DNA of 64,000 nucleotides, taken from positions 69,478 through 133,477 of IMG/VR virus record IMGVR_UViG_3300032665_000006, one strand, 5' to 3'. Each line of letters begins with the position of its first letter. Position 1 is the first letter of the stretch. Source of the DNA: a virus. Both the position numbers and the translations under genes were made by a program. Below, in pieces: positions 33,963 through 46,172 of this stretch. A model generated the notes under the pieces. It had not been told where the DNA came from and did not search any database. It worked only from the letters and a program-made list of their open reading frames with translations.

Positions 33963-34098
33963 GTCGTAAAAACCCACTAAAGTGTGCTTCTGTGAGAGGC
34001 AGGGTGGGTATGTGGCTTTTTGGCTACAGTTTTATTGTTTGGTGGCCAATCTTTCCACGGCTTGTTGAGCCATGGCCCGGAATGGACCCGAGGAAGGA

Positions 34099-34704
34099 CT
34101 ACATTACGGGTCCATTCCCATTCTTAAATCCGACTTCCCCTCCCTGCTCTTTAATCCTCTTTAATACATCTTCAAATAAGATTGGAGCAAAGTCGGGTAG
34201 TTGTTCAACGGACACATTGAAATATCGTGGATCAATCTCGTCGCTATATAGAATTTTGCCGGTCTTGGCATCAACTCCGCGTGGCTTCATTACACGATTG
34301 GCGTGGAGGTGGCCGTGGATTGAGCAACCAAATCTACCTAGCGATTCTTCATGAATAGGAATATGGCTAAGAATCATTCCATTCATCACATGATATGCAC
34401 GAAGTTCACGGAAGTATTTCCGGTAGTCCTCATCTTTAAAAATGTCGTGATTACCACGAATAAGAACCTTGTCTCCGTTAAGTCTATCCATAATAGGCAA
34501 TGCTTTTCGATTCATAACAACATCACCTAAGTGGTAAACTTTGTCGTTAGGTCGTACTCTTTCGTTCCATGCTGTAATCATGGCCTCATCCATCTCCTCA
34601 GCAGAGTCCCACGGGCGAAGTTTTGTAACCCCATCACTACGAGTGAAGCGACATACACCGGCATGACCAAAGTGTGTATCGCTAACTAAAAATACTGCTG
34701 GCAT
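34099..34704 (-). CDS. calcineurin-like metallophosphoesterase
   Basis: SDTHFGH, HLGD, GNHD, HGHLH. Confidence 0.9.
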   Translation of the reverse strand: MPAVFLVSDTHFGHAGVCRFTRSDGVTKLRPWDSAEEMDEAMITAWNERVRPNDKVYHLGDVVMNRKALPIMDRLNGDKVLIRGNHDIFKDEDYRKYFRELRAYHVMNGMILSHIPIHEESLGRFGCSIHGHLHANRVMKPRGVDAKTGKILYSDEIDPRYFNVSVEQLPDFAPILFEDVLKRIKEQGGEVGFKNGNGPVM

Positions 34705-34734
34705 ATTATGCTCCTTTCTCTAAGTTAATAAAAC

Positions 34735-34763
34735 ATTATACTATAAAAGTATTTTTTTGTCAA
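34735..34763 (-). promoter_or_regulatory. sigma70 consensus promoter
   Basis: TTGACA-N17-TATAAT. Confidence 0.8.
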
Positions 34764-34766
34764 TTC

Positions 34767-34842
34767 TGGTGGAAATGGAGGGATTCGAACCCCCGACCTT
34801 GTCCGTATGAAGGACCTGCTCTACCAACTAAGCTACATTTCC
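34767..34842 (-). tRNA. tRNA-Met(CAU), elongator type
   Basis: Loop TT-CAT-AC, CCA. Confidence 0.85.
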
Positions 34843-34866
34843 GTAAATGAAAAAAGGCGTAGAGTA

Positions 34867-35268
34867 TTATCCCCAAACCTCTTTATATTTTTCTAAAGCC
34901 TTTTTTCTTGCTAACACAAGTCTAATTTTCATTTCATCCGAAATGTCTTGTACATCAGCTGTTTGGTCGACTAGCTCTGGACGACGATATCCAATTTGAA
35001 ACTCTGGAGTTTCATCGTAATAGTCATCATCGTTATCATTTAAAAATACACGAGCTAACGGTCGCTTAGGTAGATGTAGTTTTGCCTTCGTTCTTGTGAT
35101 GATAGCACGGACCCGACCGTTTGCTGTCGCAGTTGGGGCAACCCATTCTAAGCGATTGGAATCCAAAGACTGTGCCAACTCGGCTGAGCTTTTCTGGCTT
35201 ATTATTACTAAAGTCGCGAGTGTTAATACTTGTAACAGGGTGGGTATACATGAGTTTCTCCTAAGCAT
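34867..35268 (-). CDS. hypothetical protein
   Basis: ORF with hydrophobic N-terminal segment. Confidence 0.5.
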   Translation of the reverse strand: MLRRNSCIPTLLQVLTLATLVIISQKSSAELAQSLDSNRLEWVAPTATANGRVRAIITRTKAKLHLPKRPLARVFLNDNDDDYYDETPEFQIGYRRPELVDQTADVQDISDEMKIRLVLARKKALEKYKEVWG

Positions 35269-35329
35269 ACTATATTAACGCTTAAGAGTTACACTAAGTT
35301 GACAATAATATTGCCAAAATTATATCTTT

Positions 35330-35404
35330 TGGTCCGGCGTACAGGAATCGAACCCATATTCATCGGGTAGAAGCCGATTGTACTATCCATTGTACTAACG
35401 CCAG
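35330..35404 (-). tRNA. tRNA-Arg(UCU)
   Basis: Loop CT-TCT-AC, CCA. Confidence 0.9.
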
Positions 35405-35406
35405 CT

Positions 35407-35525
35407 TATATTGAAACACACTAGAAGAACCGTGACGAGCGGATTCATTTACCTTCCTCCAACAAGCGGAAGCCCATACCGGTCAGATATGGTGCCACTA
35501 CTAAGGATTAATGTGCTTCAATATA
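35407..35525 (-). ncRNA. unidentified structured RNA closed by a 17-bp helix
   Basis: TATATTGAAGCACATTA/TAGTGTGTTTCAATATA enclosing internal hairpins, between two tRNAs. Confidence 0.55.
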
Positions 35526-35528
35526 AAC

Positions 35529-35604
35529 TGGTCCAGGCGCAGAGATTTGAACTCTGAAAGTTCGGGTAAAAGCCGAATATGATAGCCAGTTTCATCACAC
35601 CTGG
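35529..35604 (-). tRNA. tRNA-Lys(UUU)
   Basis: Loop CT-TTT-AC, CCA. Confidence 0.85.
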
Positions 35605-35713
35605 ATTGTTTTTCTTGCTTGCGTAGAGCTTTATTGCTCTTGCGGTGCGAGCCCGCTTTCCGTTTATTTGCTAGTACAGCAAATATATTTCTTGCTTTCA
35701 TTTTACTTCTCCT

Positions 35714-36133
35714 TTAAAAATCTGTTAGTGGAACTAGTTCCTCTAAATTTACAACATCGGTCCAATCTTCAATATGGCCCGAGTAGTAACCGTTGTGTTC
35801 GTTGCGTACTTCAAAATCAATATATCCACGGTTAGTGCGAATAGTAAAGAAGCCATCTTCGACTACTTCTGCGTATTCGTCATCTGTCTCAACATTGACC
35901 CACTCTTTTTCTTCTACAGCAGTAACTAACGCACCACGTAGCAAATCAAAAGTGTTACCTTCTCCAATTACATCTCTACCTTGAAAGTGATTAATGTAAA
36001 CAGTATTACAACAATCGCCACATACATAAAATCCTAATACTTCTCCTTCGATGGTACGAAATGCAACTCTATCATGGTCTTCGTTTAGGAAAATACCATT
36101 AATGCGTTTTCCAACTAGCTTGTTTAAAACCAT
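35714..36133 (-). CDS. hypothetical phage protein
   Basis: GDCC...NGYYSG motifs; AGGAG SD. Confidence 0.65.
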   Translation of the reverse strand: MVLNKLVGKRINGIFLNEDHDRVAFRTIEGEVLGFYVCGDCCNTVYINHFQGRDVIGEGNTFDLLRGALVTAVEEKEWVNVETDDEYAEVVEDGFFTIRTNRGYIDFEVRNEHNGYYSGHIEDWTDVVNLEELVPLTDF

Positions 36134-36165
36134 GCCATTCTCCTTTTAAAATTTAAAACATATTA

Positions 36166-36241
36166 GGGGTGACCTGTGGAATTCGAATCCACCCTATCGG
36201 AATCACAATCCGAGGTGCTAACCGCTAACACTAAGGCCACA
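36166..36241 (-). tRNA. tRNA-His(GUG), CCA not encoded
   Basis: Loop TT-GTG-AT, C73; flanked by an extra inverted repeat. Confidence 0.85.
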
Positions 36242-36254
36242 CCTAATATGTCTA

Positions 36255-36330
36255 TGGTGCACCCTCTTGGTTACGCTCCAAGCCATCCAGCTCTTAGAGC
36301 TGGCGCTTCCACTAGGTTAGCTTAGGGTGC
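36255..36330 (-). tRNA. atypical tRNA, apparent anticodon UAA, no long variable arm
   Basis: 7-bp acceptor + ACCA; loop TC-TAA-GA; T-loop lacks TTC. Confidence 0.55.
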
Positions 36331-36546
36331 TCTACCTCTTGATATCCAACCATCATAGTTGTCGACATCTTTTACTTCGTCTACTCCTAGTTTACTCGTG
36401 CAGTTAGGATTTTCACTACACATCGTAACAAAGGTATGTCCAAGGCTACGATGGAATTGAGACGCAGATAATGCCATACTTAAATCATCAAACACTTCTG
36501 CGTGTGGTTTATTATCCACAGTATAATAAACTTTAAACATATTCAC
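36322..36546 (-). CDS. hypothetical protein
   Basis: FVTMCSENPN motif; stop lies inside the downstream tRNA. Confidence 0.55.
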   Translation of the reverse strand: MNMFKVYYTVDNKPHAEVFDDLSMALSASQFHRSLGHTFVTMCSENPNCTSKLGVDEVKDVDNYDGWISRGRAP

Positions 36547-36556
36547 TTTCTAAAAT

Positions 36557-36630
36557 TGGTACCTCGTGATGGTGTCGAACCACCGAGACCCACTTGTAAG
36601 GAGGGCAGTATACCGTTTACTTAACGAGGC
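36557..36630 (-). tRNA. tRNA-Val(UAC)
   Basis: Loop CT-TAC-AA, CCA. Confidence 0.85.
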
Positions 36631-36633
36631 ATT

Positions 36634-36707
36634 TGGTAGAGGTACTAAGATTTGAACTTAGACTAATGCCTTCAAAGGGCACGGTGCTGCCGTTACACTA
36701 TACCTCA
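36634..36707 (-). tRNA. tRNA-Gln(UUG)
   Basis: Loop CT-TTG-AA, CCA. Confidence 0.85.
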
Positions 36708-36713
36708 ACAGTT

Positions 36714-36787
36714 TGGTTGCGGGTTCTGGAATCGCACCAGAGACTAGGGCTTATGAGACCCTCGAGATACTCCTTCTCCAACCCGCG
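36714..36787 (-). tRNA. initiator-like tRNA-fMet(CAU)
   Basis: C1:A72 mismatch, CGCGGG acceptor, loop CT-CAT-AA; T-loop TGCGATT. Confidence 0.75.
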
Positions 36788-36793
36788 ATAGAT

Positions 36794-36868
36794 TGGTGGA
36801 CCGTGGGAGAGTCGAACTCCCTACTCCTGCGTGCAAGGCAGGTGTGTTCCCAATTATACCAACAGCCC
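36794..36868 (-). tRNA. tRNA-Ala(UGC)
   Basis: G3:U70, loop CT-TGC-AC. Confidence 0.9.
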
Positions 36869-37300
36869 TAAATTCTTTTGCCATTCATTAATAAATGGCA
36901 ATACTTCGTGTTTCCATTTGCTATGAACCATCTCGTGATGATTTGGGCATAGCGGTATTAAATTACTGGGCTTGTTATTTTTTCTATTCTCATCAATATG
37001 ATGGATAGCAACAATCTTGTCAAACCCGCAAATAATACACTTGTGTTCGTGATGCTGTTTTGCTATAGTCGCATAATGTGTGGCATTGTCTTTCCACCAA
37101 GAGCTTCTGTTATTAGCACAACTTCTACTACAAAATCTAGCTGTTTCAAATTGTTTGGTATTTTGTCTACCAGTCCAAACAAATTCTTTATTACAGCATC
37201 CGCAAATTTTAGTATGATCTTTTACTGGACCATACTTTCTATTTACTTTTGCTATTTGACCAGCTTTATAAGATTCTGTATAATATTTTCCGTTATTCAT
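36854..37300 (-). CDS. HNH endonuclease
   Basis: CIICG...IHHIDEN..NN...LCPNHH. Confidence 0.9.
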   Translation of the reverse strand: MNNGKYYTESYKAGQIAKVNRKYGPVKDHTKICGCCNKEFVWTGRQNTKQFETARFCSRSCANNRSSWWKDNATHYATIAKQHHEHKCIICGFDKIVAIHHIDENRKNNKPSNLIPLCPNHHEMVHSKWKHEVLPFINEWQKNLGLLV

Positions 37301-37315
37301 AATTTTTAATTACTT

Positions 37316-37389
37316 TGGAGCGGGTAGAGAGAATCGAACTCTCAACTAAACCTTGGCAAGGTCTCGGGTTACCATTACACCATACCCGC
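37316..37389 (-). tRNA. tRNA-Gly(GCC)
   Basis: Loop TT-GCC-AA, U73, CCA. Confidence 0.9.
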
Positions 37390-37393
37390 AAAT

Positions 37394-37909
37394 TTATAAA
37401 ATACTTTCTAATAACTTCCTAACATCTAATGTAATAGGTTGTAAGTTATTTACTACTGTAGAATCTTTACATATCCAATTAGCAACAGGCAGTCCTGGTT
37501 TTAAATTAAACTGCCCGCTTTTTGTTTCAAGATTCCTATTACATTCGTCCCACGATAATTGCGATATAGCAAACTTATGCGGGGCTGACTGAATACATAA
37601 CAAATAATCAAATGATTGATTAAATTTAGACTTATTAGTATTTTGAAGTGAAACTCGTCCTGTAATTGTATTCTTCGGTGAAAACATATCAGCTACTGAT
37701 TTAAATTCATATTTTGTATTAGTTTCTAAATCAATGCTATCATATCCTTCCTGGTCAACATACTTTAATCTTCCGTCTGTTGCTTTCTCTAATGCTAATG
37801 CTAGAACTTCGCCTTTGAGAAATCTATAAGATGGCTTATTAAGTTGCTTGCCAAGTTTAACTAAACAATCAACTACGGGTTGATAATCTACATCCTTCAA
37901 AAAACTCAT
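37394..37909 (-). CDS. putative PD-(D/E)xK nuclease-like protein
   Basis: E...GYD...YEFKS spacing. Confidence 0.5.
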   Translation of the reverse strand: MSFLKDVDYQPVVDCLVKLGKQLNKPSYRFLKGEVLALALEKATDGRLKYVDQEGYDSIDLETNTKYEFKSVADMFSPKNTITGRVSLQNTNKSKFNQSFDYLLCIQSAPHKFAISQLSWDECNRNLETKSGQFNLKPGLPVANWICKDSTVVNNLQPITLDVRKLLESIL

Positions 37910-37923
37910 AAGTTCCTTTAATT

Positions 37924-37997
37924 TGGAGCGGGATAAGAGAATCGAACTCTTGACCGAAGATTGGAAATCTGCTGTTTTACCATTAAACTAATCCCGC
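37924..37997 (-). tRNA. tRNA-Gly(UCC)
   Basis: Loop TT-TCC-AA, CCA. Confidence 0.9.
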
Positions 37998-37999
37998 AT

Positions 38000-38190
38000 T
38001 GGTGTCGTAACGGCAGGGCCCTTCAGGATGAGTTACGACGTTACTACATTGAGGCATTGCACCGTAGCTTACGCTACCCCCATCAACTGCCTCAAATTTT
38101 GTGTAGGGCTTCCACCTACTCCCACCTCGCTTTAAAGTCTGCGTGTCCAAGACTTAGTTCTATTGCTAGAACTGAAAATGTTACTTTCTA
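38000..38190 (-). ncRNA. structured non-coding segment ending in a CCA minihelix
   Basis: GTCGTAAC/GTTACGAC-A-CCA plus upstream hairpins. Confidence 0.45.
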
Positions 38191-38196
38191 ATACTT

Positions 38197-38228
38197 TGGT
38201 ACCTCGGGCCGGAATCGAACCGTTCGCG
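38197..38228 (-). pseudogene. tRNA remnant (T-arm, 3' acceptor strand and CCA only)
   Basis: cGGTTCGATTCCggcccgaggtACCA with no 5' half. Confidence 0.6.
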
Positions 38229-38234
38229 TTATAT

Positions 38235-38320
38235 TGGTGCCCGGAGCCGGACTCGAACCGGCATGCCTTTTAAAGCGGAAGATTTTAAGTCTTCTATGTA
38301 TACCATTTCATCACCCGGGC
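38235..38320 (-). tRNA. tRNA-Leu(UAA)
   Basis: Long variable arm, loop CT-TAA-AA. Confidence 0.9.
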
Positions 38321-38775
38321 GTTTGATCTATCTTGCGCCAACCTTTAGGTTTACCACCTTTTCTGTTAGCGGCAATTTTTGCCTTATGTTCTTCCGACTT
38401 TGGTTTTCCTTTATTTCCAGATCCATTAGTATTACCTAACATTACTTTGCTATTCATAGCAGATGCTTTTTCTAAACCATATTTTTCAACACGGCGTTCA
38501 AAAGGATTTTTATGTGTCCCAAACTCTTTACCATCAATGATGATATTATCGTAATCAGTGCCCCAATACAAATGTTTTGGATTACTACATTTACTATTAT
38601 TACAAGCATGACACAACAGTATGCGCCCGCTTGGAATAGTTGTATCTAAATATTGTGCTAATACACCTTTATGATTAGTAGAGTTACCGCCGCGTTCACA
38701 ACAAGGCTCGGATAAGTCTAAGTGAGCCCTGCGTTCTTCGCGAGATTTTTTAATAAATTCTTCTACTATAATCAT
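38311..38775 (-). CDS. HNH-like endonuclease with NUMOD3-like tail
   Basis: CHACNNSKCSNPKHLYWGT..DN; KPKSEEHKAKI. Confidence 0.8.
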   Translation of the reverse strand: MIIVEEFIKKSREERRAHLDLSEPCCERGGNSTNHKGVLAQYLDTTIPSGRILLCHACNNSKCSNPKHLYWGTDYDNIIIDGKEFGTHKNPFERRVEKYGLEKASAMNSKVMLGNTNGSGNKGKPKSEEHKAKIAANRKGGKPKGWRKIDQTPG

Positions 38776-38781
38776 AACAGT

Positions 38782-38810
38782 ATTATATAGTAATAATTTA
38801 TTACTGTCAA
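38782..38810 (-). promoter_or_regulatory. sigma70 consensus promoter
   Basis: TTGACA-N17-TATAAT, ATG 6 nt downstream. Confidence 0.75.
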
Positions 38811-38816
38811 ATATTT

Positions 38817-38901
38817 TGGTGGGCAAGGAGAGACTCGAACTCTCACGCCTTGCGGCACTGGCTTCTAAGACCAGCATGGCTACCAATTACATCACTCACC
38901 C
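38817..38901 (-). tRNA. tRNA-Leu(UAG)
   Basis: Loop CT-TAG-AA, long variable arm. Confidence 0.9.
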
Positions 38902-39366
38902 ATTTACTACTTTTAAACCTTTTAATCTATCTGCGGCATAACTAGCCGCAAACGCTTGTGGCTTAACTAGTGGCTCTACATTACATACGCCACGGATATA
39001 ACCAATAGCTTGACTTACAACATTAGAACTAGCATGAATTTCGTTAGGATTAATATCTAAATGTACTTCTACAGCACGACCTTCTAATACTTCTGCTAAT
39101 TTTAAATACAATTCACTAACCTTAAACACTTCAGTCATTAATCTAGTATTAGGTTTATCACAACGGTCATAATCTCGTTCTCTAGTCACTTCACCAAATA
39201 ACTTACAACCGTGATTACCGTCAATATGTACAACAATAGCGGCTGTATAGTCAGCATACCATTCTTTGCCACGCTTAATTCGTTCAGAGTCCACACCAAT
39301 ATAAATCTTAGTGTCTGGACCTTGAGCATCTATAAACTTTTTGATTTGTGGTATGTTAAACTTCAT
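38896..39366 (-). CDS. RNase H-like YkuK (DUF458) family protein
   Basis: IYIGVDS...RLMTEV...EVHLDIN...VKPQAFAASYAAD. Confidence 0.8.
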   Translation of the reverse strand: MKFNIPQIKKFIDAQGPDTKIYIGVDSERIKRGKEWYADYTAAIVVHIDGNHGCKLFGEVTRERDYDRCDKPNTRLMTEVFKVSELYLKLAEVLEGRAVEVHLDINPNEIHASSNVVSQAIGYIRGVCNVEPLVKPQAFAASYAADRLKGLKVVNG

Positions 39367-39387
39367 TATTCTCTTTCTTAAGTTATT

Positions 39388-39461
39388 TGGCGTCCCGGCA
39401 GGGATTCGAACCCCGACCAACAGTTTTGGAGACTGCGATGCTACCGTTACACTACCAAGAC
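39388..39461 (-). tRNA. tRNA-Trp(CCA)
   Basis: Loop CT-CCA-AA. Confidence 0.9.
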
Positions 39462-39481
39462 GTTGTACTACTATTTAATGT

Positions 39482-39558
39482 TGGTGCCTCAACCTAGACT
39501 CGAACTAGGGACCCTTGCGTTATCAACACAATGCTCTAACCAACTGAGCTATTGAGGC
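39482..39558 (-). tRNA. tRNA-Ile(GAU)
   Basis: Loop TT-GAT-AA. Confidence 0.9.
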
Positions 39559-39559
39559 A

Positions 39560-39636
39560 TGGTGGGTCTTGAGAGACTCGAACTCCCAACCGCTAGTTTC
39601 GAAGACTAGAACTCTAATCCATTGAGCTAAAGACCC
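39560..39636 (-). tRNA. tRNA-Arg(UCG)
   Basis: Loop CT-TCG-AA. Confidence 0.9.
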
Positions 39637-39641
39637 ATGTT

Positions 39642-39736
39642 TGGTAGTAGATATAGGTTATGATCCTATCCGTTGCAGCCCATCTGACCACTCTCCCAGG
39701 TTTATAAAACCCGGCCGCACACCAGTGCTATCTACC
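39642..39736 (-). tRNA. atypical tRNA-like RNA, apparent anticodon UAU
   Basis: 7-bp acceptor + ACCA, tiny D-arm, loop TT-TAT-AA, long variable region, non-canonical T-loop. Confidence 0.55.
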
Positions 39737-39746
39737 ATATTGTTAT

Positions 39747-39833
39747 TGGCGGAAAGTATTGGAGTCGAACCAATCCACCCATTGCTGAATGACAGATTAG
39801 CAATCTGTTGCCTTGCCGCTCGGCCAACTTTCC
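39747..39833 (-). tRNA. tRNA-Ser(GCU)
   Basis: Loop TT-GCT-AA, long variable arm. Confidence 0.9.
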
Positions 39834-39842
39834 TTAATTGTT

Positions 39843-39937
39843 TGGCGGAAGACAGAGGAGTCGAACCCCACCCGGCTCTTCACCAGGACCTGGTTTTCAA
39901 GGCCAGTCGCAGGACCATCCCCGCTGCATTATCTTCC
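39843..39937 (-). tRNA. tRNA-Ser(UGA)
   Basis: Loop CT-TGA-AA, long variable arm. Confidence 0.85.
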
Positions 39938-39943
39938 ATATTG

Positions 39944-40019
39944 TGGCTCCCCGAGCTGGGCTCGAACCAGCGACACCGTGATTAACAGTCACGTACTCTA
40001 CCAACTGAGCTATCAGGGA
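39944..40019 (-). tRNA. tRNA-Asn(GUU), second copy
   Basis: Loop CT-GTT-AA. Confidence 0.95.
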
Positions 40020-40027
40020 ATTGTTTT

Positions 40028-40105
40028 TGGTCTGTGAGGTAGGATTCGAACCTACAGCCTCCTGACTCCAGATCAGGCCGTCTACCAGATTGACATTACA
40101 CACAG
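40028..40105 (-). tRNA. tRNA-Pro(UGG) with atypical loop
   Basis: Loop TC-TGG-AG. Confidence 0.8.
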
Positions 40106-40113
40106 ATTGTTAC

Positions 40114-40188
40114 TGGTGCCCCAGAATGGAATCGAACCACCGAACCCGGCTTACAAGACCGGACCTTTACCACTAAGGATACAAGGGC
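40114..40188 (-). tRNA. tRNA-Thr(UGU), second copy
   Basis: Loop CT-TGT-AA. Confidence 0.85.
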
Positions 40189-40571
40189 TATTTTCTGTCT
40201 CTACCATTTCCTTTATTTTTAGCCTTATATGTAGGCGTCTGACTATGGCAGTTTGGGCATATTGCCCTTAAATTTTCTTCTTTGTTATTTTTATAATTCC
40301 CGTCGATATGATCTAATTCTAGATATAGCGGAAGACCATTATGTTCTTCGATACCACAAATAAGACATTTATTATTTTGTTTTGCCCTTATATAACGATG
40401 TATATACATACTAGTTTGATGTTTGCCTCGAAGGCCATCTTCTAAACCAGACTTCCACCGTTCTATGTAACTTTGATGCATTCCTTCTAAGTAATGCTTG
40501 CCACAATAGATTCTTTTTTCTTTATGTGTAAATACCGTAGAACATATTTTACAGCTATATTTTTGTAACAT
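40188..40571 (-). CDS. HNH endonuclease
   Basis: CLICG...LELDHIDGN..NN...ICPNCH; paralog of 23280-23696. Confidence 0.9.
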   Translation of the reverse strand: MLQKYSCKICSTVFTHKEKRIYCGKHYLEGMHQSYIERWKSGLEDGLRGKHQTSMYIHRYIRAKQNNKCLICGIEEHNGLPLYLELDHIDGNYKNNKEENLRAICPNCHSQTPTYKAKNKGNGRDRK

Positions 40572-40587
40572 ATAATCTTTCTTTAAC

Positions 40588-40664
40588 TGGCACTCTGTAG
40601 GGGTGACGATCCCCTCTTACCAACGTGAAAGGCTGGGGTCCTAACCAACATAGACGAACAGAGT
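40588..40664 (-). tRNA. tRNA-Glu(UUC)
   Basis: Loop CT-TTC-AC. Confidence 0.8.
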
Positions 40665-40670
40665 ATAACT

Positions 40671-40748
40671 TGGCGTCCTCACCGGGTGTCGATCCCGGTC
40701 CTACACCTTGAAAGGGTGTTGATCTAGCCAATCGTAATCTATGAGGAC
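40671..40748 (-). tRNA. tRNA-Glu(UUC), second type
   Basis: Loop CT-TTC-AA. Confidence 0.8.
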
Positions 40749-40754
40749 ATAACT

Positions 40755-40829
40755 TGGCGACTCCAGGGAGTAACGATCTCCCTCTTCCTCTTAGACAGAG
40801 AGGTGTGCGTCCATGAACACTTTGGAGCC
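40755..40829 (-). tRNA. tRNA-Asp(GUC)
   Basis: Loop CT-GTC-TA, G73. Confidence 0.8.
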
Positions 40830-40834
40830 TTTGT

Positions 40835-40908
40835 TGGTTGCGGGCTAGGGTAACGCTCCCTATTCCATCCTGGCTTATGAGACCGGAGTGTGGCTATCAC
40901 AACCCGCA
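40835..40908 (-). tRNA. degenerate fMet-like tRNA(CAU)
   Basis: GCGGG acceptor, loop CT-CAT-AA, reduced D-arm, T-loop AGCGTTA. Confidence 0.55.
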
Positions 40909-40916
40909 ATAGTTGT

Positions 40917-40994
40917 TGGAGGAACGGGTCGGATTCGAACCGACGACTTTACAGTTTTGCAGACTGTTGCTTTGGGCCACTCAGCCACCGTTCC
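40917..40994 (-). tRNA. tRNA-Cys(GCA)
   Basis: Loop CT-GCA-AA, U73. Confidence 0.9.
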
Positions 40995-41003
40995 GTTATT
41001 GTT

Positions 41004-41088
41004 TGGTGGGTGGTCATGGAGTCGAACCAAGTATGCCAGAGGCGTCTGATTTACAGTCAGGTGCGGTCGCCAGTGCCGCTCACCACCC
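41004..41088 (-). tRNA. tRNA-Tyr(GUA)
   Basis: Loop CT-GTA-AA, variable arm. Confidence 0.9.
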
Positions 41089-41108
41089 ATATAACGCTCT
41101 CTTTAGAA

Positions 41109-41220
41109 AGCGTGTAATAAAGCATACTAAGGCAATCATTTTTGCGCTGTGGAAAAGCGCCATGTCTTCGATCCGCGATGCCATTGACGGACCAGGTCTT
41201 TTAGTATGCTTTATTACGCT
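41109..41220 (-). ncRNA. unidentified structured RNA closed by a perfect 17-bp inverted repeat
   Basis: GTAATAAAGCATACTAA/TTAGTATGCTTTATTAC enclosing two GC-rich hairpins. Confidence 0.55.
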
Positions 41221-41316
41221 GTAGTTTTTTGCTCCACAAAAGGAGTTTCATCGTACAGGCCGCCCGTTTACTAGATGTTTTAAGTGCCTAGCGTGGACCT
41301 CGTTCCCACATAACAC

Positions 41317-41345
41317 ACTATACTACCTTACTGTTTATTTGTCAA
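41317..41345 (-). promoter_or_regulatory. sigma70-like promoter at the head of the tRNA array
   Basis: TTGACA-N17-TATAGT. Confidence 0.65.
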
Positions 41346-41509
41346 TCTTCTATTTGAAAATAAACAGCTTCTTTACGCTGCGAAGCAAGTAATACCTTTG
41401 CTCGCTCGATCTTATTCTGAATCAACTTCTGCTTTTGCTCATCACTGAGTGAATAACTATAAGCCTGTTCCACAATACGATCATTTAATTTACTATAATC
41501 TATTGTCAT
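41342..41509 (-). CDS. 55-aa protein directly downstream of the attenuator
   Basis: MTIDYSKLNDRIVEQAY...FQIED with AGGAAAG SD; not in the ORF track. Confidence 0.55.
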   Translation of the reverse strand: MTIDYSKLNDRIVEQAYSYSLSDEQKQKLIQNKIERAKVLLASQRKEAVYFQIED

Positions 41510-41523
41510 CTTTCTTTCCTTTT

Positions 41524-41559
41524 AAAAACAAAAAACCCGGAGTGTTTAGTTCCGGGTCC
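41524..41559 (-). terminator. intrinsic terminator with a competing antiterminator
   Basis: GGACCCGGA-N9-UCCGGGU followed by UUUUUGUUUUU. Confidence 0.8.
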
Positions 41560-41586
41560 TTAAAGTTTGTGATATTAAAATATTAC

Positions 41587-41748
41587 TTAATCATCATATC
41601 CTTCTTGGACCCTACTATAATCTTTCCCTGCCTCAATCATATTAAAGCCACTATTATGAATTGTTGAGCGTAAAGAGGCTACCGGGCTCCAGCAGAGTGC
41701 TGAACCTTGTGCTATTTGATACGTTACGGACAATCTTGTATTTTTCAT
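41587..41748 (-). CDS. putative 53-aa leader peptide
   Basis: MKNTRLSVTYQIAQGSALCWSPVASLRSTIHNSGFNMIEAGKDYSRVQEGYDD; ATG 9 nt after a perfect promoter. Confidence 0.6.
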   Translation of the reverse strand: MKNTRLSVTYQIAQGSALCWSPVASLRSTIHNSGFNMIEAGKDYSRVQEGYDD

Positions 41749-41757
41749 AATATGTTT

Positions 41758-41786
41758 ATTATAATGCTTAATTAATTCTTTGTCAA
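41758..41786 (-). promoter_or_regulatory. perfect sigma70 promoter
   Basis: TTGACA-N17-TATAAT. Confidence 0.85.
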
Positions 41787-41830
41787 CCTTCTTTTTTACT
41801 TCTCTGAACTTTTATTTACCTAATGTTGCA

Positions 41831-41859
41831 ATTATACGCATATTTCCATTGAAAGTCAA
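41831..41859 (-). promoter_or_regulatory. tandem sigma70 promoter
   Basis: TTGACT-N17-TATAAT. Confidence 0.7.
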
Positions 41860-41874
41860 CCACTTTTGGTAAAA

Positions 41875-42129
41875 TTAGTTGCCCCATCTTAAAAGGAAGA
41901 GTGATGAGTCGGTATCGCGAACAAAACTTACACCACATAAGTGTGGTTGATCCAATGTCCACATGGTCCAAGTCCAGTGTATGTAATGTCTACCTACTGT
42001 TGTTTCAAGCCAATATTCCATAGTATCCACTGCGGCGATCCAATCTAAATTTCCATTGGTTTCTATTATTGGCCAAGGCGCTACAGCTCTATAAGGAAGT
42101 TCAGGATGTTTGTCCCAAAGTGCTCGCAT
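41875..42129 (-). CDS. FxLxW-ending small protein
   Basis: VSFVRDTDSSLFLLRWGN. Confidence 0.6.
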   Translation of the reverse strand: MRALWDKHPELPYRAVAPWPIIETNGNLDWIAAVDTMEYWLETTVGRHYIHWTWTMWTLDQPHLCGVSFVRDTDSSLFLLRWGN

Positions 42130-42167
42130 AGAAGTATTTACGAGCCCAGAACTTTCATTATATGCTA

Positions 42168-42782
42168 TTAATTGATTAGATCTTCTATAGATTTTTCGAA
42201 CCCCACTGTAATTACTAATCTCGGTCCTGGGCTCAAATGTACGGTATGCACATAGTCTGTGCGTACAAATGCGCTAGGAGTTAGTAAATTTGATTCTGCA
42301 GCCGTAGCAGGGCCTAAATATTCCATTTTTTCTGCTACTGTTGTTCCTGGCATAGTTAGCCCAGTAAAAGGTAATCCAGTTCGAGTACTTACTTGAGTAA
42401 TCGAGTATAGTCTTTTATCAGTATGATGAAAATCGGTCCACCAATGCATAGGATCTTCTGGATTACCTTTTATTAATATATTAAATCTACTTTTTAAAAT
42501 TTTATGGTTTTCGTTATCCACATGGGGTCTTCCATAACCTTGATTTTCTAAATTAGCTAAATGTGCGGTTATGATTAGATTGGATGTATCACAATTATAT
42601 TGCGACAAATAATTTAATAATTCTTGTCCAGCACTTACTTCACGCCATTCGTGCTGTAACTTTCTTTGATCCCAATCTAAATTATGATAAAAATTTTCAT
42701 TAAAATGATTTTTATATCGATTAAGTATCCAATCTTTAGCTTCCTGCGAAAAATCAAAATCTGTTTTATGGAATAGTAACAT
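42168..42782 (-). CDS. HxD...H dioxygenase-like protein
   Basis: RPHVD...YVHTV..GPRL; recent tandem duplicate of 42766. Confidence 0.65.
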   Translation of the reverse strand: MLLFHKTDFDFSQEAKDWILNRYKNHFNENFYHNLDWDQRKLQHEWREVSAGQELLNYLSQYNCDTSNLIITAHLANLENQGYGRPHVDNENHKILKSRFNILIKGNPEDPMHWWTDFHHTDKRLYSITQVSTRTGLPFTGLTMPGTTVAEKMEYLGPATAAESNLLTPSAFVRTDYVHTVHLSPGPRLVITVGFEKSIEDLIN

Positions 42783-43413
42783 TGATTAACTCTTCTATAC
42801 TTTTATCGAAAGGCACAGTAATTACCAATCTTGGTCCAGGACTTAATTTTATAGTATGAATATAATCTGTGCGTACAAATGCGCTAGGAGTTAGTAAATT
42901 TGATGCTGTATCTGTAGCAGGACCTAGATACTCCATTTTTTCTTCATTAGTGTGTCCTGGCATAGATAAACTACTAAATTCTTGATTAGTACGTGTATTT
43001 AAAACATTACTATAGTACAAGCGTTTATCTGTATGGTGAAAGTTAGTCCACCAAAGCATAGGATCTTCTGGATTACCAAGCACTATTATATTAAATTTTG
43101 AAGTTACTGTTATTTTACCTTTAGCAGGTCCGTATAATTGTTCGGCGTCAACGTGCGGGCGACTATAATATGGTATTGTTAAATTTGCCAGATGAGCAGT
43201 TATGATCAGATTAGATGTATCGCAATTATATTGAGAAAGGTAAGACAATAATTCTTCTCCAGCAATAGATGCTCGCCATTCATGTTGTAGTTGATTTTGA
43301 ATCCAATCATAATTATGATAGAAATTTAATTTGAAGTGATCTTTATATCGGTTAAGTAACCAATCTTTAGCTTCTTGTGAGAAATCAAAATTTGTTTTAT
43401 GATATAACAGCAT
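42766..43413 (-). CDS. HxD...H dioxygenase-like protein
   Basis: RPHVD...YIHTI..GPRL. Confidence 0.65.
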   Translation of the reverse strand: MLLYHKTNFDFSQEAKDWLLNRYKDHFKLNFYHNYDWIQNQLQHEWRASIAGEELLSYLSQYNCDTSNLIITAHLANLTIPYYSRPHVDAEQLYGPAKGKITVTSKFNIIVLGNPEDPMLWWTNFHHTDKRLYYSNVLNTRTNQEFSSLSMPGHTNEEKMEYLGPATDTASNLLTPSAFVRTDYIHTIKLSPGPRLVITVPFDKSIEELINVTIP

Positions 43414-43913
43414 TATAATTTCCTACTAGTATTATCAAATTCTATCATAGTGACTCTTTTATTATCTAAAAAATATTTAATACCGTTAATAACTTGATTA
43501 ACATCAATGACTGTACGACCTAATTCAACGCACCTAGCATTATTTTCAAGAAAACCTGGTATCAACAATAAACATCTTTCTGGATAAAATGGTTTATGAT
43601 ATTGATATGTTTCGTGTATTATTTTTTTATTAACTTGATATGGATTGGTGCTATAGTATCCAGCAATACTTCCAATAGTAATTAAAGTTACTTTTGAATC
43701 TTTTAAATCTTTTATGATATTTGCTTGTATAGTACCTGAATAGGCATTATTGAATACTATGTCCGCTGATTTCATTATAGACAAGCACTCGTCGTACTTT
43801 GTAGTTAAATCGTATCCGTTACTACGACTTAACCCGATAACTTCTTCATTGGGGAATAATTCAACTATTTTGCTTCCTACTAAACCAGTATGTCCAGTGA
43901 TTACTATCTTCAT
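43413..43913 (-). CDS. short-chain dehydrogenase-like Rossmann protein
   Basis: ITGHTGLVG, FNNA, YxxxK. Confidence 0.7.
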   Translation of the reverse strand: MKIVITGHTGLVGSKIVELFPNEEVIGLSRSNGYDLTTKYDECLSIMKSADIVFNNAYSGTIQANIIKDLKDSKVTLITIGSIAGYYSTNPYQVNKKIIHETYQYHKPFYPERCLLLIPGFLENNARCVELGRTVIDVNQVINGIKYFLDNKRVTMIEFDNTSRKL

Positions 43914-43928
43914 TCTATATTTACCAAC

Positions 43929-43953
43929 AAAAAAAGGACCCGAAGGCCCTTTT
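43929..43953. terminator. intrinsic terminator
   Basis: aaaaaagg-a-cc-cgaa-gg-c-cctttt. Confidence 0.5.
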
Positions 43954-43970
43954 AGTTTAACTCGTAAAAA

Positions 43971-44423
43971 TTAGAACGAGTACTTAACACCTGCGGTTAC
44001 GATGTTGCCATTGTAAGCCTTAGTAATGTTATTACCTTTTTGGTAGGCATAATCAGCTACCAAATTTACATTCTTAACTACAGGATAGGCAATCCCTGCG
44101 CCAATAAATCCAGCACCACCATTACCTACGCCAGGTTTTTGTGTGTCAATAAATGCAGCTCCAGCACGAACATTAGTTTGTACGGGACCTAGTTTGATAA
44201 CGTCATAACTCACAGATGCTGTGTAACGATTAACATCAACAGCATTGGTAGTACTACGATCAAAAGTTCCTTGAACGCCAATTGCGCCAAATGATTGACC
44301 AACAGAAACGCCTGCGGTATCTTGTTTAGAGCCCATGTTGCGGCCACCAAAAACACCAACGTCAGTTGCGAAAGCAAAAGTAGTTGATGCTAATAATGCT
44401 ACTGCTAAAATTACTTTTTTCAT
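43971..44423 (-). CDS. outer-membrane beta-barrel protein
   Basis: Signal peptide; C-terminal AGVKYSF. Confidence 0.8.
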   Translation of the reverse strand: MKKVILAVALLASTTFAFATDVGVFGGRNMGSKQDTAGVSVGQSFGAIGVQGTFDRSTTNAVDVNRYTASVSYDVIKLGPVQTNVRAGAAFIDTQKPGVGNGGAGFIGAGIAYPVVKNVNLVADYAYQKGNNITKAYNGNIVTAGVKYSF

Positions 44424-44545
44424 ACTAATAGTTCCTTTATGTTTATACTACTGAACAAATATTTATTGTTTTTTTGCGTTGGCCTGCAAAAATTGCTAGG
44501 TTTTGGCATATTTTTAAGTTTAATATACGCATATAATGAAGTCAA

Positions 44546-44912
44546 AAGAATAGGGGTCGAAGCCCCTATCTGTTATTTTCTGTTTCGACGGATAACTCCG
44601 CAAAGCAGTGATTAAACTGCTAATGTTTGGCGTTGTGCTGTACGAGCAGAGAAACGAATTCCCTTACCTGAAACAGTTACTTCGCCTTTAGATGCGTTTG
44701 CATTTAAGTTTTTCGCTTGATTTACAGTCATCGCCTACTGTGTTGCCTCTTTCATTATCTCACCATGTCGAAACCTTGTCATCCCCACTGAAACATACTA
44801 CAGCTTTTGGCCTCGCTACCGATAACTCGGTTCGGTAATATGCTTCGGTGGAGATGCCGGGAATCGAACCCGGGTCCACAGCGCCTTCACTACGAAGGAA
44901 TTACAACAATTC
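44546..44912 (-). ncRNA. ssrA: permuted (two-piece) tmRNA
   Basis: Acceptor piece GGTTCGATTCCCGGCATCTCCACC precedes GGGGATG...TTTCGAC; G3:U70; TTAAAT-GCA resume signal; tag ends LAV*; terminal hairpin. Confidence 0.85.
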
Positions 44913-44913
44913 T

Positions 44914-45117
44914 TTACAGCGGAAGAATATTTGATGCTTGCTTGCCTTTAGGGCCTGCCACTACATCGAATGTTACCGCTTGATTCTCTTTTAAACTCTT
45001 AAAACCATTTGTGCTAATTGCGGAAAAATGTGCAAACAATTCCTCACCACCAGCATCGGGGGTAATAAATCCAAACCCTTTTGCATCATTAAACCACTTT
45101 ACTTTACCTGTTGCCAT
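44914..45117 (-). CDS. cspA: cold-shock protein
   Basis: [20 protein letters not shown] motifs. Confidence 0.95.
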
Positions 45118-45144
45118 GTTACTTTACTTCCTTTATTAAAAACT

Positions 45145-45174
45145 ATTATACTACTATTTTACCTATTTTGTCAA
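45145..45174 (-). promoter_or_regulatory. sigma70 promoter for csp-tmRNA
   Basis: TTGACA-N18-TATAAT. Confidence 0.7.
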
Positions 45175-45403
45175 CCAATTTGATATAAACAAGCGTAGCG
45201 TGATACTTAATATATCTAACCACTCTAAAACTCAAATGAGCATTAGTAGGTATATTTAGTATTGATCGGTTCCGAATTGCTGGCAATGGACCACAACCTA
45301 ATCTGCTCCACTCTTCTTCAGAGTAATAATACTGTTCAACTGGTTTTTTGTTCTGTTCCATAAATCTATTTAGTACTGGTAGGCCTTGTTACTTAAAGAC
45401 ATT

Positions 45404-45479
45404 TGGTGGTCCGGGTAGGACTTGCACCCACACTCCCCGAATTATGAGTTCGACGCTTTACTTTTTAAGCTACCGGGCC
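45404..45479 (-). tRNA. tRNA(CAU), probably Ile2 (lysidine type)
   Basis: GGCCC acceptor, loop CT-CAT-AA, atypical T-loop. Confidence 0.7.
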
Positions 45480-45508
45480 ATCTTTACTACATTGTAAGTA
45501 TAACATCG

Positions 45509-45877
45509 TTAGCTATAATTGTCAAGAAATTTTTCTAGACTACCATACAAATTAGCTAATACTGCTTCTTTACTACCAAAAAAAACAATAGACTTTGGTA
45601 CACCTTTAGTAGTTATAATATAGTAAGGCATTTGAAGTTTTCTATCAAGGTCTAGTATTGTATGCTGATTAAACTTCATAGGATCATCAATGCGATATTC
45701 ATAAAATTCAAGGTCTAATGTATCGGCTAAAGCAAACCAACCTAATTGAGTTAATCTAAGTCCGCCAGTTGGACGCAAATTATACCACCATGATACTCTA
45801 GCTGATTCTACGCTAATGCGTTGTTCTTCCGGGAGTTGATTTACTAATTGTTCTGTAAGTTTGAGTTTGTTACGCAC
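45509..45877 (-). CDS. hypothetical phage protein
   Basis: WW.N.R..GGLRLT..G motif. Confidence 0.6.
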   Translation of the reverse strand: MRNKLKLTEQLVNQLPEEQRISVESARVSWWYNLRPTGGLRLTQLGWFALADTLDLEFYEYRIDDPMKFNQHTILDLDRKLQMPYYIITTKGVPKSIVFFGSKEAVLANLYGSLEKFLDNYS

Positions 45878-45884
45878 AGTAATA

Positions 45885-46172
45885 TCAAGGATATACTTTT
45901 TCGCCTTGCTTGAGTAACACTACGCTAAACTTATCAGTTTTGAATTGTGTGTTGAGTTTTTTGGCAAGATTGATTGCGTGACCTGGATTACTAAAACTTA
46001 CTTTTTTATATTTAGGTCCAGGGTACTGAACTAATAAATTAGAAGTTTTAAGATTAACTGGTTTATTATCAAAGTAAACGGCCCATACTCCTTCCGAAGC
46101 AAGTACTTGCTCGGTTTTGTATGTTTGCTTGTTTGTAAGCTCAGCTAAAATGGTTGGCTTGGGGCGACTCAC
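45885..46172 (-). CDS. hypothetical phage protein
   Basis: GPKYKKVSFSNPGHA motif. Confidence 0.65.
   Translation of the reverse strand: MSRPKPTILAELTNKQTYKTEQVLASEGVWAVYFDNKPVNLKTSNLLVQYPGPKYKKVSFSNPGHAINLAKKLNTQFKTDKFSVVLLKQGEKVYP

Follow-up and report, generated by a model that had tools for sequence, protein, structure and literature searches.

The locus and its relatives

A stretch of 64,000 nucleotides (nt) from the IMG/VR virus record IMGVR_UViG_3300032665_000006 (the window, whose positions serve as coordinates throughout) carries on its minus strand a candidate regulatory module at the head of a large tRNA gene region. The source is an uncultured giant phage from lake water, represented by a viral contig of 133 kb with an estimated completeness of 39% (CheckV). 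In the direction of transcription, the module begins with two promoters of the sigma-70 type, P1 (41831-41859, matching 11 of 12 consensus positions) and P2 (41758-41786, 12 of 12), both with 17-nt spacers. These are followed by a leader open reading frame (ORF) of 53 codons with a TAA stop (41587-41748) and by an intrinsic terminator (41524-41559), behind which lie a second small ORF of 55 codons, a third promoter (P3), a structured RNA and the tRNA genes. The arrangement is compact, with about 260 bp separating P2 from the end of the terminator T run. The element is probably a ribosome-dependent (leader-peptide) transcription attenuator, which would sense the speed of decoding broadly and control entry into the tRNA region. 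An initial annotation, made from the letters of the window, had described tandem near-consensus promoters, a promoter below the terminator and a 53-codon ORF without a Shine-Dalgarno sequence, and all of these were recovered on the minus strand where it had put them.

Relatives of the module were collected in two ways. With the leader as anchor, 25 loci were retrieved from public viral and metagenome contigs, and these, together with the window, amount to 16 distinct DNA versions. A search anchored on the 55-amino acid (aa) protein, which is unbiased as to leader content, returned 28 loci (L043-L070) with 21 distinct upstream regions. The comparison set consists of these 37 distinct loci; a protein search added four further leader variants at 85-93% identity, which were compared as proteins only. 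Folds and helices were tested in 21 representative lineages, and covariation among close relatives in 13. All 37 distinct loci have the same layout, with exactly one candidate leader of 32-55 codons, a strong promoter before it and an intrinsic terminator after it, where the leader had to end between 80 nt upstream of the 5' arm of the terminator and a few nucleotides into that arm. The leader ORF is intact in every one of them, and a single locus has an additional, overlapping ORF of 28 codons in a different frame.

Among cultured phages (50,697 phage records), the region 41000-42200 gave one weak blastn match, covering a tRNA only, in a 344-kb Ralstonia jumbo phage, and tblastn with the leader and the 55-aa protein gave matches at chance level only (E of 2 to 10). 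Between the clades of the comparison set, similarity starts at or just upstream of P1 and the genes further upstream differ, from which it follows that the module moves with the tRNA region rather than with its left-hand neighbours. P1 itself is kept in the clade with 53-aa leaders.

Terminator and alternative antiterminator

The terminator, located where the initial annotation had put it, has a 9-bp stem (5' arm 41559-41551, 3' arm from 41541), a 9-nt loop and a T run, and folds with approximately -14.9 kcal/mol (RNAfold). It was missed by a terminator scan, which accepts loops of 3-8 nt. Across the 13 close relatives it is 100% paired, with two compensatory pairs and a score that none of 500 shuffles reaches.

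If the 3' arm of the terminator is omitted from the folded RNA, the end of the ORF (from 41612) pairs with the 5' arm instead, at -26.0 kcal/mol when folding begins 60 nt before the stop codon and at -20.1 kcal/mol when it begins 45 nt before it (RNAfold). In the resulting antiterminator hairpin (41554-41612), which encloses the stop codon, the base is formed by codons 46-48 (41612-41607) on the 5' side and by the first nucleotides of the terminator 5' arm (41559-41554) on the other. The two folds are mutually exclusive, as had been proposed from the sequence of the window, and the duplex energy of the ORF end is reached by none of 300 dinucleotide shuffles of that end.

The same alternative recurs in all 21 representatives. 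In each, the minimum free energy (MFE) structure of the nascent transcript that ends with the terminator 5' arm pairs this arm with the last codons and places the stop codon inside the hairpin. The 5' strand of the antiterminator lies between 31 and 1 nt before the stop, and the terminator arm begins 18-30 nt after it; the initial annotation had proposed looking in relatives for such spacing of stop codon and alternative helix. Energies range from -19.6 to -34.2 kcal/mol for the antiterminators, against -11.8 to -20.9 kcal/mol for the terminators. When the ORF end of each lineage was shuffled separately, in 12 of the 21 lineages no more than four of 300 shuffles paired as strongly as the observed duplex, and in 15 lineages no more than 15 of 300 did.

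The sequences of the helices differ between lineages, yet ORF end and terminator arm stay complementary. Trying every ORF end against the arm of every lineage gives a mean of -16.2 kcal/mol for ORF ends with their own arms and -10.9 kcal/mol with non-cognate ones; the cognate total is reached in none of 20000 permutations, and 15 of the 21 leaders have their cognate arm among the three best-ranking of 21. A test in which helices taken from each lineage's own fold were re-dealt was set aside as biased towards the observed value. The mean probability that the terminator 5' arm is paired upstream is 0.69 for leader terminators (n = 32, which are mutually related and make the P value generous), against 0.33 for 19 other terminators of the same loci.

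One lineage (L065/L016) is instructive in this respect. The last 27 or so nucleotides of its leader (about 2870-2910) resemble positions 41587-41615 of the window but are read in another frame, and a one-base difference leaves the position of the stop codon with respect to the hairpin unchanged. What has been kept in this lineage is the RNA and the position of the stop, not the tail of the peptide.

Probable translation of the leader ORF

The ATG of the leader lies 9 nt past the -10 hexamer of P2 and has no Shine-Dalgarno sequence before it, which implies a leaderless or near-leaderless transcript; the corresponding distance in relatives is 6-11 nt. Such starts are common in the window. Seven of its 19 strong sigma-70-like sites (62549, 55425, 41786, 38810, 33962, 22448 and 18492, all on the minus strand) have, 5-10 nt after the -10 hexamer, an ATG opening an ORF of at least 53 aa, and leaderless or near-leaderless mRNAs appear to be routine in this phage. 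In four lineages a purine-rich 5' untranslated region (UTR) precedes the ATG in place of the leaderless start, with a sequence that by eye is clearly Shine-Dalgarno-like in two. The number of promoter-like sites in 40500-43000 is nine, which is not above that in shuffled sequence (7.6, standard deviation 3.1), and P1, P2 and P3 are three of the four top-scoring ones. Inspection by eye also shows that many of the leader promoters in L043-L070 share the same A/T-rich word in their 17-nt spacer despite dissimilar leaders.

Within the 53-aa clade, the pooled ratio of nonsynonymous to synonymous variation (pN/pS) is 0.43 in the frame of the leader, against 0.79 and 1.11 in the two other frames, and variable columns number 20, 18 and 28 of 53 at the three codon positions. 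Differences in leader length and indels are in frame. Because of the pN/pS ratio, the in-frame indels, the purine-rich stretch before some of the ATGs and the commonness of near-leaderless starts, the leader is likely to be translated.

The peptide itself is poorly conserved between lineages. The leader of the window is 20-31% identical to those of other long-leader lineages, and lengths range from 32 to 55 aa; the neighbouring 55-aa protein, by comparison, retains 51-71% identity to the window copy in six relatives. AlphaFold2 gave no confident fold for the leader (predicted local distance difference test, pLDDT, of 53.0 from nine sequences, a shallow alignment that makes this weak evidence), and neither the leader, the 55-aa protein nor the two upstream ORFs have a match in Pfam or PHROGs. 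Inside the 53-aa clade, a core of 12 residues that includes Trp, Cys and Pro hardly varies. Five proteins of the leader family are already annotated as genes in public data.

Amino acid and codon repertoire of the leader

As initially annotated, the leader of the window contains all 20 amino acids, most of them one to four times each, in 36 distinct codons that include the four Gly codons and the GC-rich CCG, CTC, CGC, AGG and ACG. A run of codons for any one amino acid, of the regulatory kind found in attenuators, was sought in the leader and is absent. It had been cautioned that 36 different codons in 53 is about what uniform random usage gives, and the number is indeed ordinary by that standard. 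It is nevertheless high for this phage: in the comparison with length-matched pieces of the phage's own genes that the initial annotation had suggested, the mean is 29.8 distinct codons and only 1.6% of the pieces reach 36 (P = 0.016). The codons of the leader are also rarer than those of such pieces (1.6th percentile).

The 34 distinct leader peptides of the comparison set fall into 22 long (48-55 aa) and 12 short ones (32-42 aa), and all 22 long leaders contain all 20 amino acids. A complete set occurs in 3.9-6.8% of same-length pieces of the phage's own proteins, and has a probability of 0.042-0.076 per leader if residues are drawn independently from the composition of the leader family. 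Seven long lineages, at 12-38% identity by a global aligner with one pair at 50%, give a joint probability of 2 × 10^-9 if treated as independent, which remains small if they are counted as four. The excess extends to the short leaders, of which eleven representatives sum to 193 distinct residues against an expected 173.5 (standard deviation 4.8), a value reached by none of 100000 simulations.

Cys, Trp and His are each present in all 34 peptides. Depending on the branch of the 53-aa clade, the single His stands at column 31, 10 or 6, and the single Cys adjoins Trp in some lineages and lies near the N-terminus in others; both move and neither is ever lost. Residues that relocate without becoming absent form the pattern that would be expected of selection for presence rather than for position.

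The repertoire was also considered as a mirror of the tRNA array. This was rejected, as the amino acids missing from leader and array differ in the phage's own contig and in four relatives, the stretches compared being partial.

Genes and RNAs downstream of the proposed switch

Directly behind the terminator, and hence the first gated cargo, is the 55-aa ORF (41509-41342) with its Shine-Dalgarno sequence (41520-41514), the two together spanning 41342-41520. The family to which it belongs (52-62 aa, in the window and L043-L070) has a nearly invariant N-terminal segment and, in every locus that has it, immediately follows the leader terminator and carries a Shine-Dalgarno sequence of its own. 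AlphaFold2 models the protein as a hairpin of two helices (mean pLDDT 75.4, seven sequences), for which no match was found in the ESM Atlas. In L015 and L056 the ORF is followed by a protein gene, phosphoesterase-like as judged only by eye, and some 800 nt separate the terminator from the tRNA; the structured RNA could not be found in this lineage.

P3 (41317-41345, 11 of 12 consensus positions) lies below the switch and could drive the structured RNA and the tRNAs independently. The structured RNA (41089-41316) lies between P3 and the first tRNA and was aligned over 17 lineages (the window with L003, L005, L009, L012, L013, L016, L021, L040, L048, L051, L053, L057, L061, L064, L069 and L070). 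It contains at least three hairpins with compensatory changes, identified by eye; words in its loops and linkers are conserved, and after them comes a long helix whose insert varies. A search of 34000-46000 against Rfam (cmscan, E up to 1) returned tRNAs, a tmRNA and chance-level matches over tRNA genes, and nothing in 41089-41860; at that threshold the structured RNA has no Rfam match, and there is none to T-box or curated leader families.

The main tRNA block (34767-41088) opens with a tRNA-Tyr (41088-41004) and holds 26 of the 30 tRNA genes of the window, with ORFs interspersed. These 30 are also all that the whole 133-kb contig contains, and they serve 19 amino acids, with none for Phe. 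They include a tRNA-Ser with an ACU anticodon (ARAGORN) and a tRNA-Ile with UAU. In the comparison set, a tRNA gene on the same strand follows 130-1156 nt past the terminator in 35 of the 37 loci, the other two ending early or showing none within 900 nt. The interval between terminator and tRNA is without a promoter-like site of at least 10/12 in 27 of the 37, and the window is among the ten that have one. Upstream of the module, on the minus strand (44521-44949 and 45404-45479), the window encodes a permuted tmRNA whose tag has 29 aa as well as a tRNA-Met, as do several relatives (L021, L022, L023 and L042).

Proposed mechanism and alternative explanations

Transcription from the strong promoter would start at or a few bases before the ATG, so that a ribosome could load as the 5' end emerges. 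If this ribosome kept pace, it would be on the last codons or the stop while the next 50 bases were made, and the 3' end of the ORF would be held; so held, it could not pair with the terminator 5' arm, the terminator would form and transcription would stop. A ribosome that was late, or that stalled anywhere in the ORF, would allow the hairpin around the stop codon to form first and sequester the terminator arm. The polymerase would then read through into the 55-aa ORF and, together with P3, supply the structured RNA and the tRNA array. The default fold without translation would be the antiterminator, with read-through as the consequence. Since every one of the 20 amino acids is maintained in the leader, a shortage of any charged tRNA should open the switch, as should a general slowing of elongation.

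Computation from the sequences gives the parts of this system and their conservation, two folds that exclude each other, ORF ends that co-vary with terminator arms, coding selection and an excess of amino acid diversity. From the geometry and from known attenuators, we infer that the position of the ribosome decides the fold, that stalls raise read-through and that the purpose is tRNA supply. Comparison between lineages supports, at the level of sequence, the alternative of terminator and antiterminator, the translation of the leader and its complete amino acid repertoire. The attenuator interpretation first put forward for the window has accordingly been strengthened by the common geometry of all 21 lineages with their different helices, by purifying selection on the frame and by the completeness of all 22 long leaders.

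Several observations weigh against it. Antiterminator pairing in the close relatives is 94%, with only one pair changed on both sides (a basal pair found as C-G, U-A and U-G), and is not above shuffles, of which 202 of 500 reach it in terms of cells paired. RNAalifold on the same relatives favours the upper stop-codon hairpin together with the terminator. Six of the 21 representatives are non-significant when shuffled individually (19 to 209 of 300 shuffles reach the observed energy). Co-variation of the helices, which the initial annotation had proposed looking for in relatives, is seen in the cognate fit across lineages; among close relatives, taken alone, it is weak, and it is the diverged lineages that decide in favour of the alternative fold. 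The position of the pairing strand raises a further difficulty. Its 3' end is 16-22 nt before the stop in the long leaders other than L069 and that of the window, and 1-9 nt before it in the short leaders, in L069 and in the MFE structure of the window, where the basal strand lies at 18-23 nt and some additional pairs extend to 9 nt. The strand of the long leaders, the window among them, lies 16-31 nt before the stop and would be at or beyond the edge of the footprint of a terminating ribosome, taking the usual footprint limits; masking must therefore occur during the reading of the last codons, or by steric exclusion. A conserved pause or protector hairpin, which would synchronise ribosome and polymerase, was not found, one being seen only in some of the sequences.

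Other points concern what is sensed and what is controlled. The 12 distinct short leaders hold 16-19 amino acids and miss between one and four, mostly Phe, Arg and Gln. The leader of the window has a Phe codon although its contig lacks a tRNA-Phe. Transcripts from P1 have a 5' UTR without a Shine-Dalgarno sequence, and the peptide itself may have a role, given its conserved core and a pN/pS below one. Read-through had been predicted to reach both the 55-aa ORF and the tRNA array: the former is strictly behind the switch, whereas in the window the tRNAs can apparently be reached from P3, which bypasses it. As the sequence stands, strict gating here would apply to the 55-aa ORF only, and beyond that ORF read-through would add to transcription driven by P3. 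Finally, one RNA library among 24 runs yielded, over 40900-41900, a single 151-nt contig (41537-41687, depth 2.5), for which carry-over of DNA is possible and which shows neither transcription nor its ends.

Some of these observations would fit a switch of the same construction that reads only whether the leader is translated at all, with the supply of ribosomes, the state of leaderless initiation or the infection phase as its input; it would then be a timer or a gauge of translation capacity, and the complete amino acid set would be secondary. Such a switch would account for the conserved near-leaderless start, with 6-11 nt between -10 and ATG, for an antiterminator that is the default fold without translation, for the short leaders lacking one to four amino acids and for leader repertoires that do not match the arrays. 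It leaves unexplained, however, an amino acid diversity far above that of draws from the family's composition and the relocation of His and Cys without loss, and the four lineages with a purine-rich 5' UTR, which are not leaderless, keep the remaining layout; it is considered unlikely. The view that the 53-aa ORF is an ordinary gene for a small phage protein, with its own promoters and terminator, can appeal to the pN/pS of 0.43 and the core conserved within the clade, to the five family members called as genes in public data and to the weak covariation among close relatives. The complementarity of ORF end and terminator arm would then be incidental or serve mRNA stability, which is hard to reconcile with their co-variation across lineages (none of 20000 permutations), with the lesser upstream pairing of other terminators in the same loci (0.33 against 0.69) and with a lineage that has changed its C-terminal frame while keeping the RNA. 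An ordinary gene would also have to diverge to 20-31% identity and vary between 32 and 55 aa beside a neighbour at 51-71%, has no confident fold or family match, and would leave the tRNAs of 27 of the 37 loci without another strong promoter. This explanation seems quite improbable. A nascent-peptide arrest sensor of the TnaC or SecM type, in which a conserved segment stalls the ribosome on a small molecule or factor, would explain why the Trp/Cys/Pro core of 12 residues is nearly invariant in the 53-aa clade and why Trp and Cys occur in all 34 peptides. Across lineages, though, the core varies in position and sequence, with Cys beside Trp or near the N-terminus, and with the ribosome at the stop codon it would lie more than 25 residues from the peptidyl-transferase centre, which would speak against a likeness to known arrest peptides. 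It is very improbable that the leader acts in this way.

The broad attenuator could be taken further, as an alarm for damage to any tRNA. A host nuclease cutting any tRNA, or failed charging, would stall the pioneer ribosome at the corresponding codon of the leader and, through read-through of the terminator, deliver replacement tRNAs, with the 55-aa protein and the structured RNA as further parts for tRNA rescue or counter-defence. The leader would be a checklist with one copy per amino acid kept by selection, which would explain His and Cys codons that move and never vanish. This extension is doubtful, and its link to anticodon nucleases is speculation.

Comparison with known systems

The control of phage tRNA arrays has been little studied, and the role of phage tRNA genes is itself debated between compensation for codon usage and escape from host defences that cut tRNAs, as discussed in PMC10264068 and PMC11555353. 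If the attenuator proposed here operates as described, the phage would measure decoding directly and make tRNAs on demand, by means of a simple and testable circuit. Attenuation by leader peptides, familiar from amino acid and resistance genes, would then also occur at tRNA genes and in viruses, and the leaders would be a rare case of a peptide selected for its composition and not for its sequence. An element this compact could also serve as a general reporter of elongation stress. A literature search for leader-peptide attenuators in front of phage tRNA genes found none described; papers beyond that search may exist.

The leaders of amino acid operons (trp, his, leu and phe, and the multivalent thr and ilvGMEDA) have a leader ORF near the promoter, a terminator, an exclusive antiterminator and a signal given by the position of the ribosome. 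In them, codons for one to three amino acids occur in runs, and there is a protector (1:2) hairpin, through which an absence of translation leads to termination. The phage leader shares with them the leader ORF, the intrinsic terminator and the exclusive antiterminator. It differs in having no codon runs and no conserved protector that could be found, and in that its predicted default, when untranslated, is read-through.

Two further comparisons concern what is sensed and what is controlled. The toiL upstream ORF (uORF) of E. coli topAI-yjhQ, described in PMC12121999, and the uORF attenuators of the vmlR type, described in PMC9226507, sense antibiotics that target the ribosome. They are alike in being short uORFs that report general translation stress by the stalling of ribosomes; their cargo consists of toxin-antitoxin or resistance genes and not of tRNAs, and they are cellular rather than viral. 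The cryptic long tRNA operon of Anabaena is, as reported in PMC8421152, induced by translational stress, and resembles the phage system as an additional set of tRNA genes, silent by default, that impaired translation turns on. Its control as reported in PMC10272220 is nevertheless by a protein repressor, TrcR, instead of a leader-peptide attenuator, and it resides on a bacterial megaplasmid and not in a phage.

The closest system is the uORF attenuator of whiB7 (wblC) in mycobacteria, as described in PMC10274678, with which the phage module has in common a fairly long uORF of broad repertoire before a pair of antiterminator and terminator. In M. smegmatis this uORF has codons for all amino acids other than Cys, and genes for 18 of the 20 amino acids were hits in that study; stalls at many codons lead to read-through, and the encoded amino acids set what is sensed, in that removal of the Trp or His codons abolishes the respective response. 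Loss of its start codon raises basal expression, which is the same default as that predicted for the phage leader. On the same account, the whiB7 uORF is enriched in Ala and several amino acids are missing from it in M. tuberculosis, and the long leaders of the phage family are stricter, being complete in 22 of 22. The two show no relation in sequence, and they differ in host (an actinobacterium, against a phage of Gram-negative hosts) and in cargo (a transcription factor, against tRNA genes; PMC10274678 for whiB7). The phage element would hence work like the whiB7 attenuator without being a member of it, since its cargo comprises the 55-aa protein, the structured RNA and the tRNAs, and no WhiB7/WblC gene.

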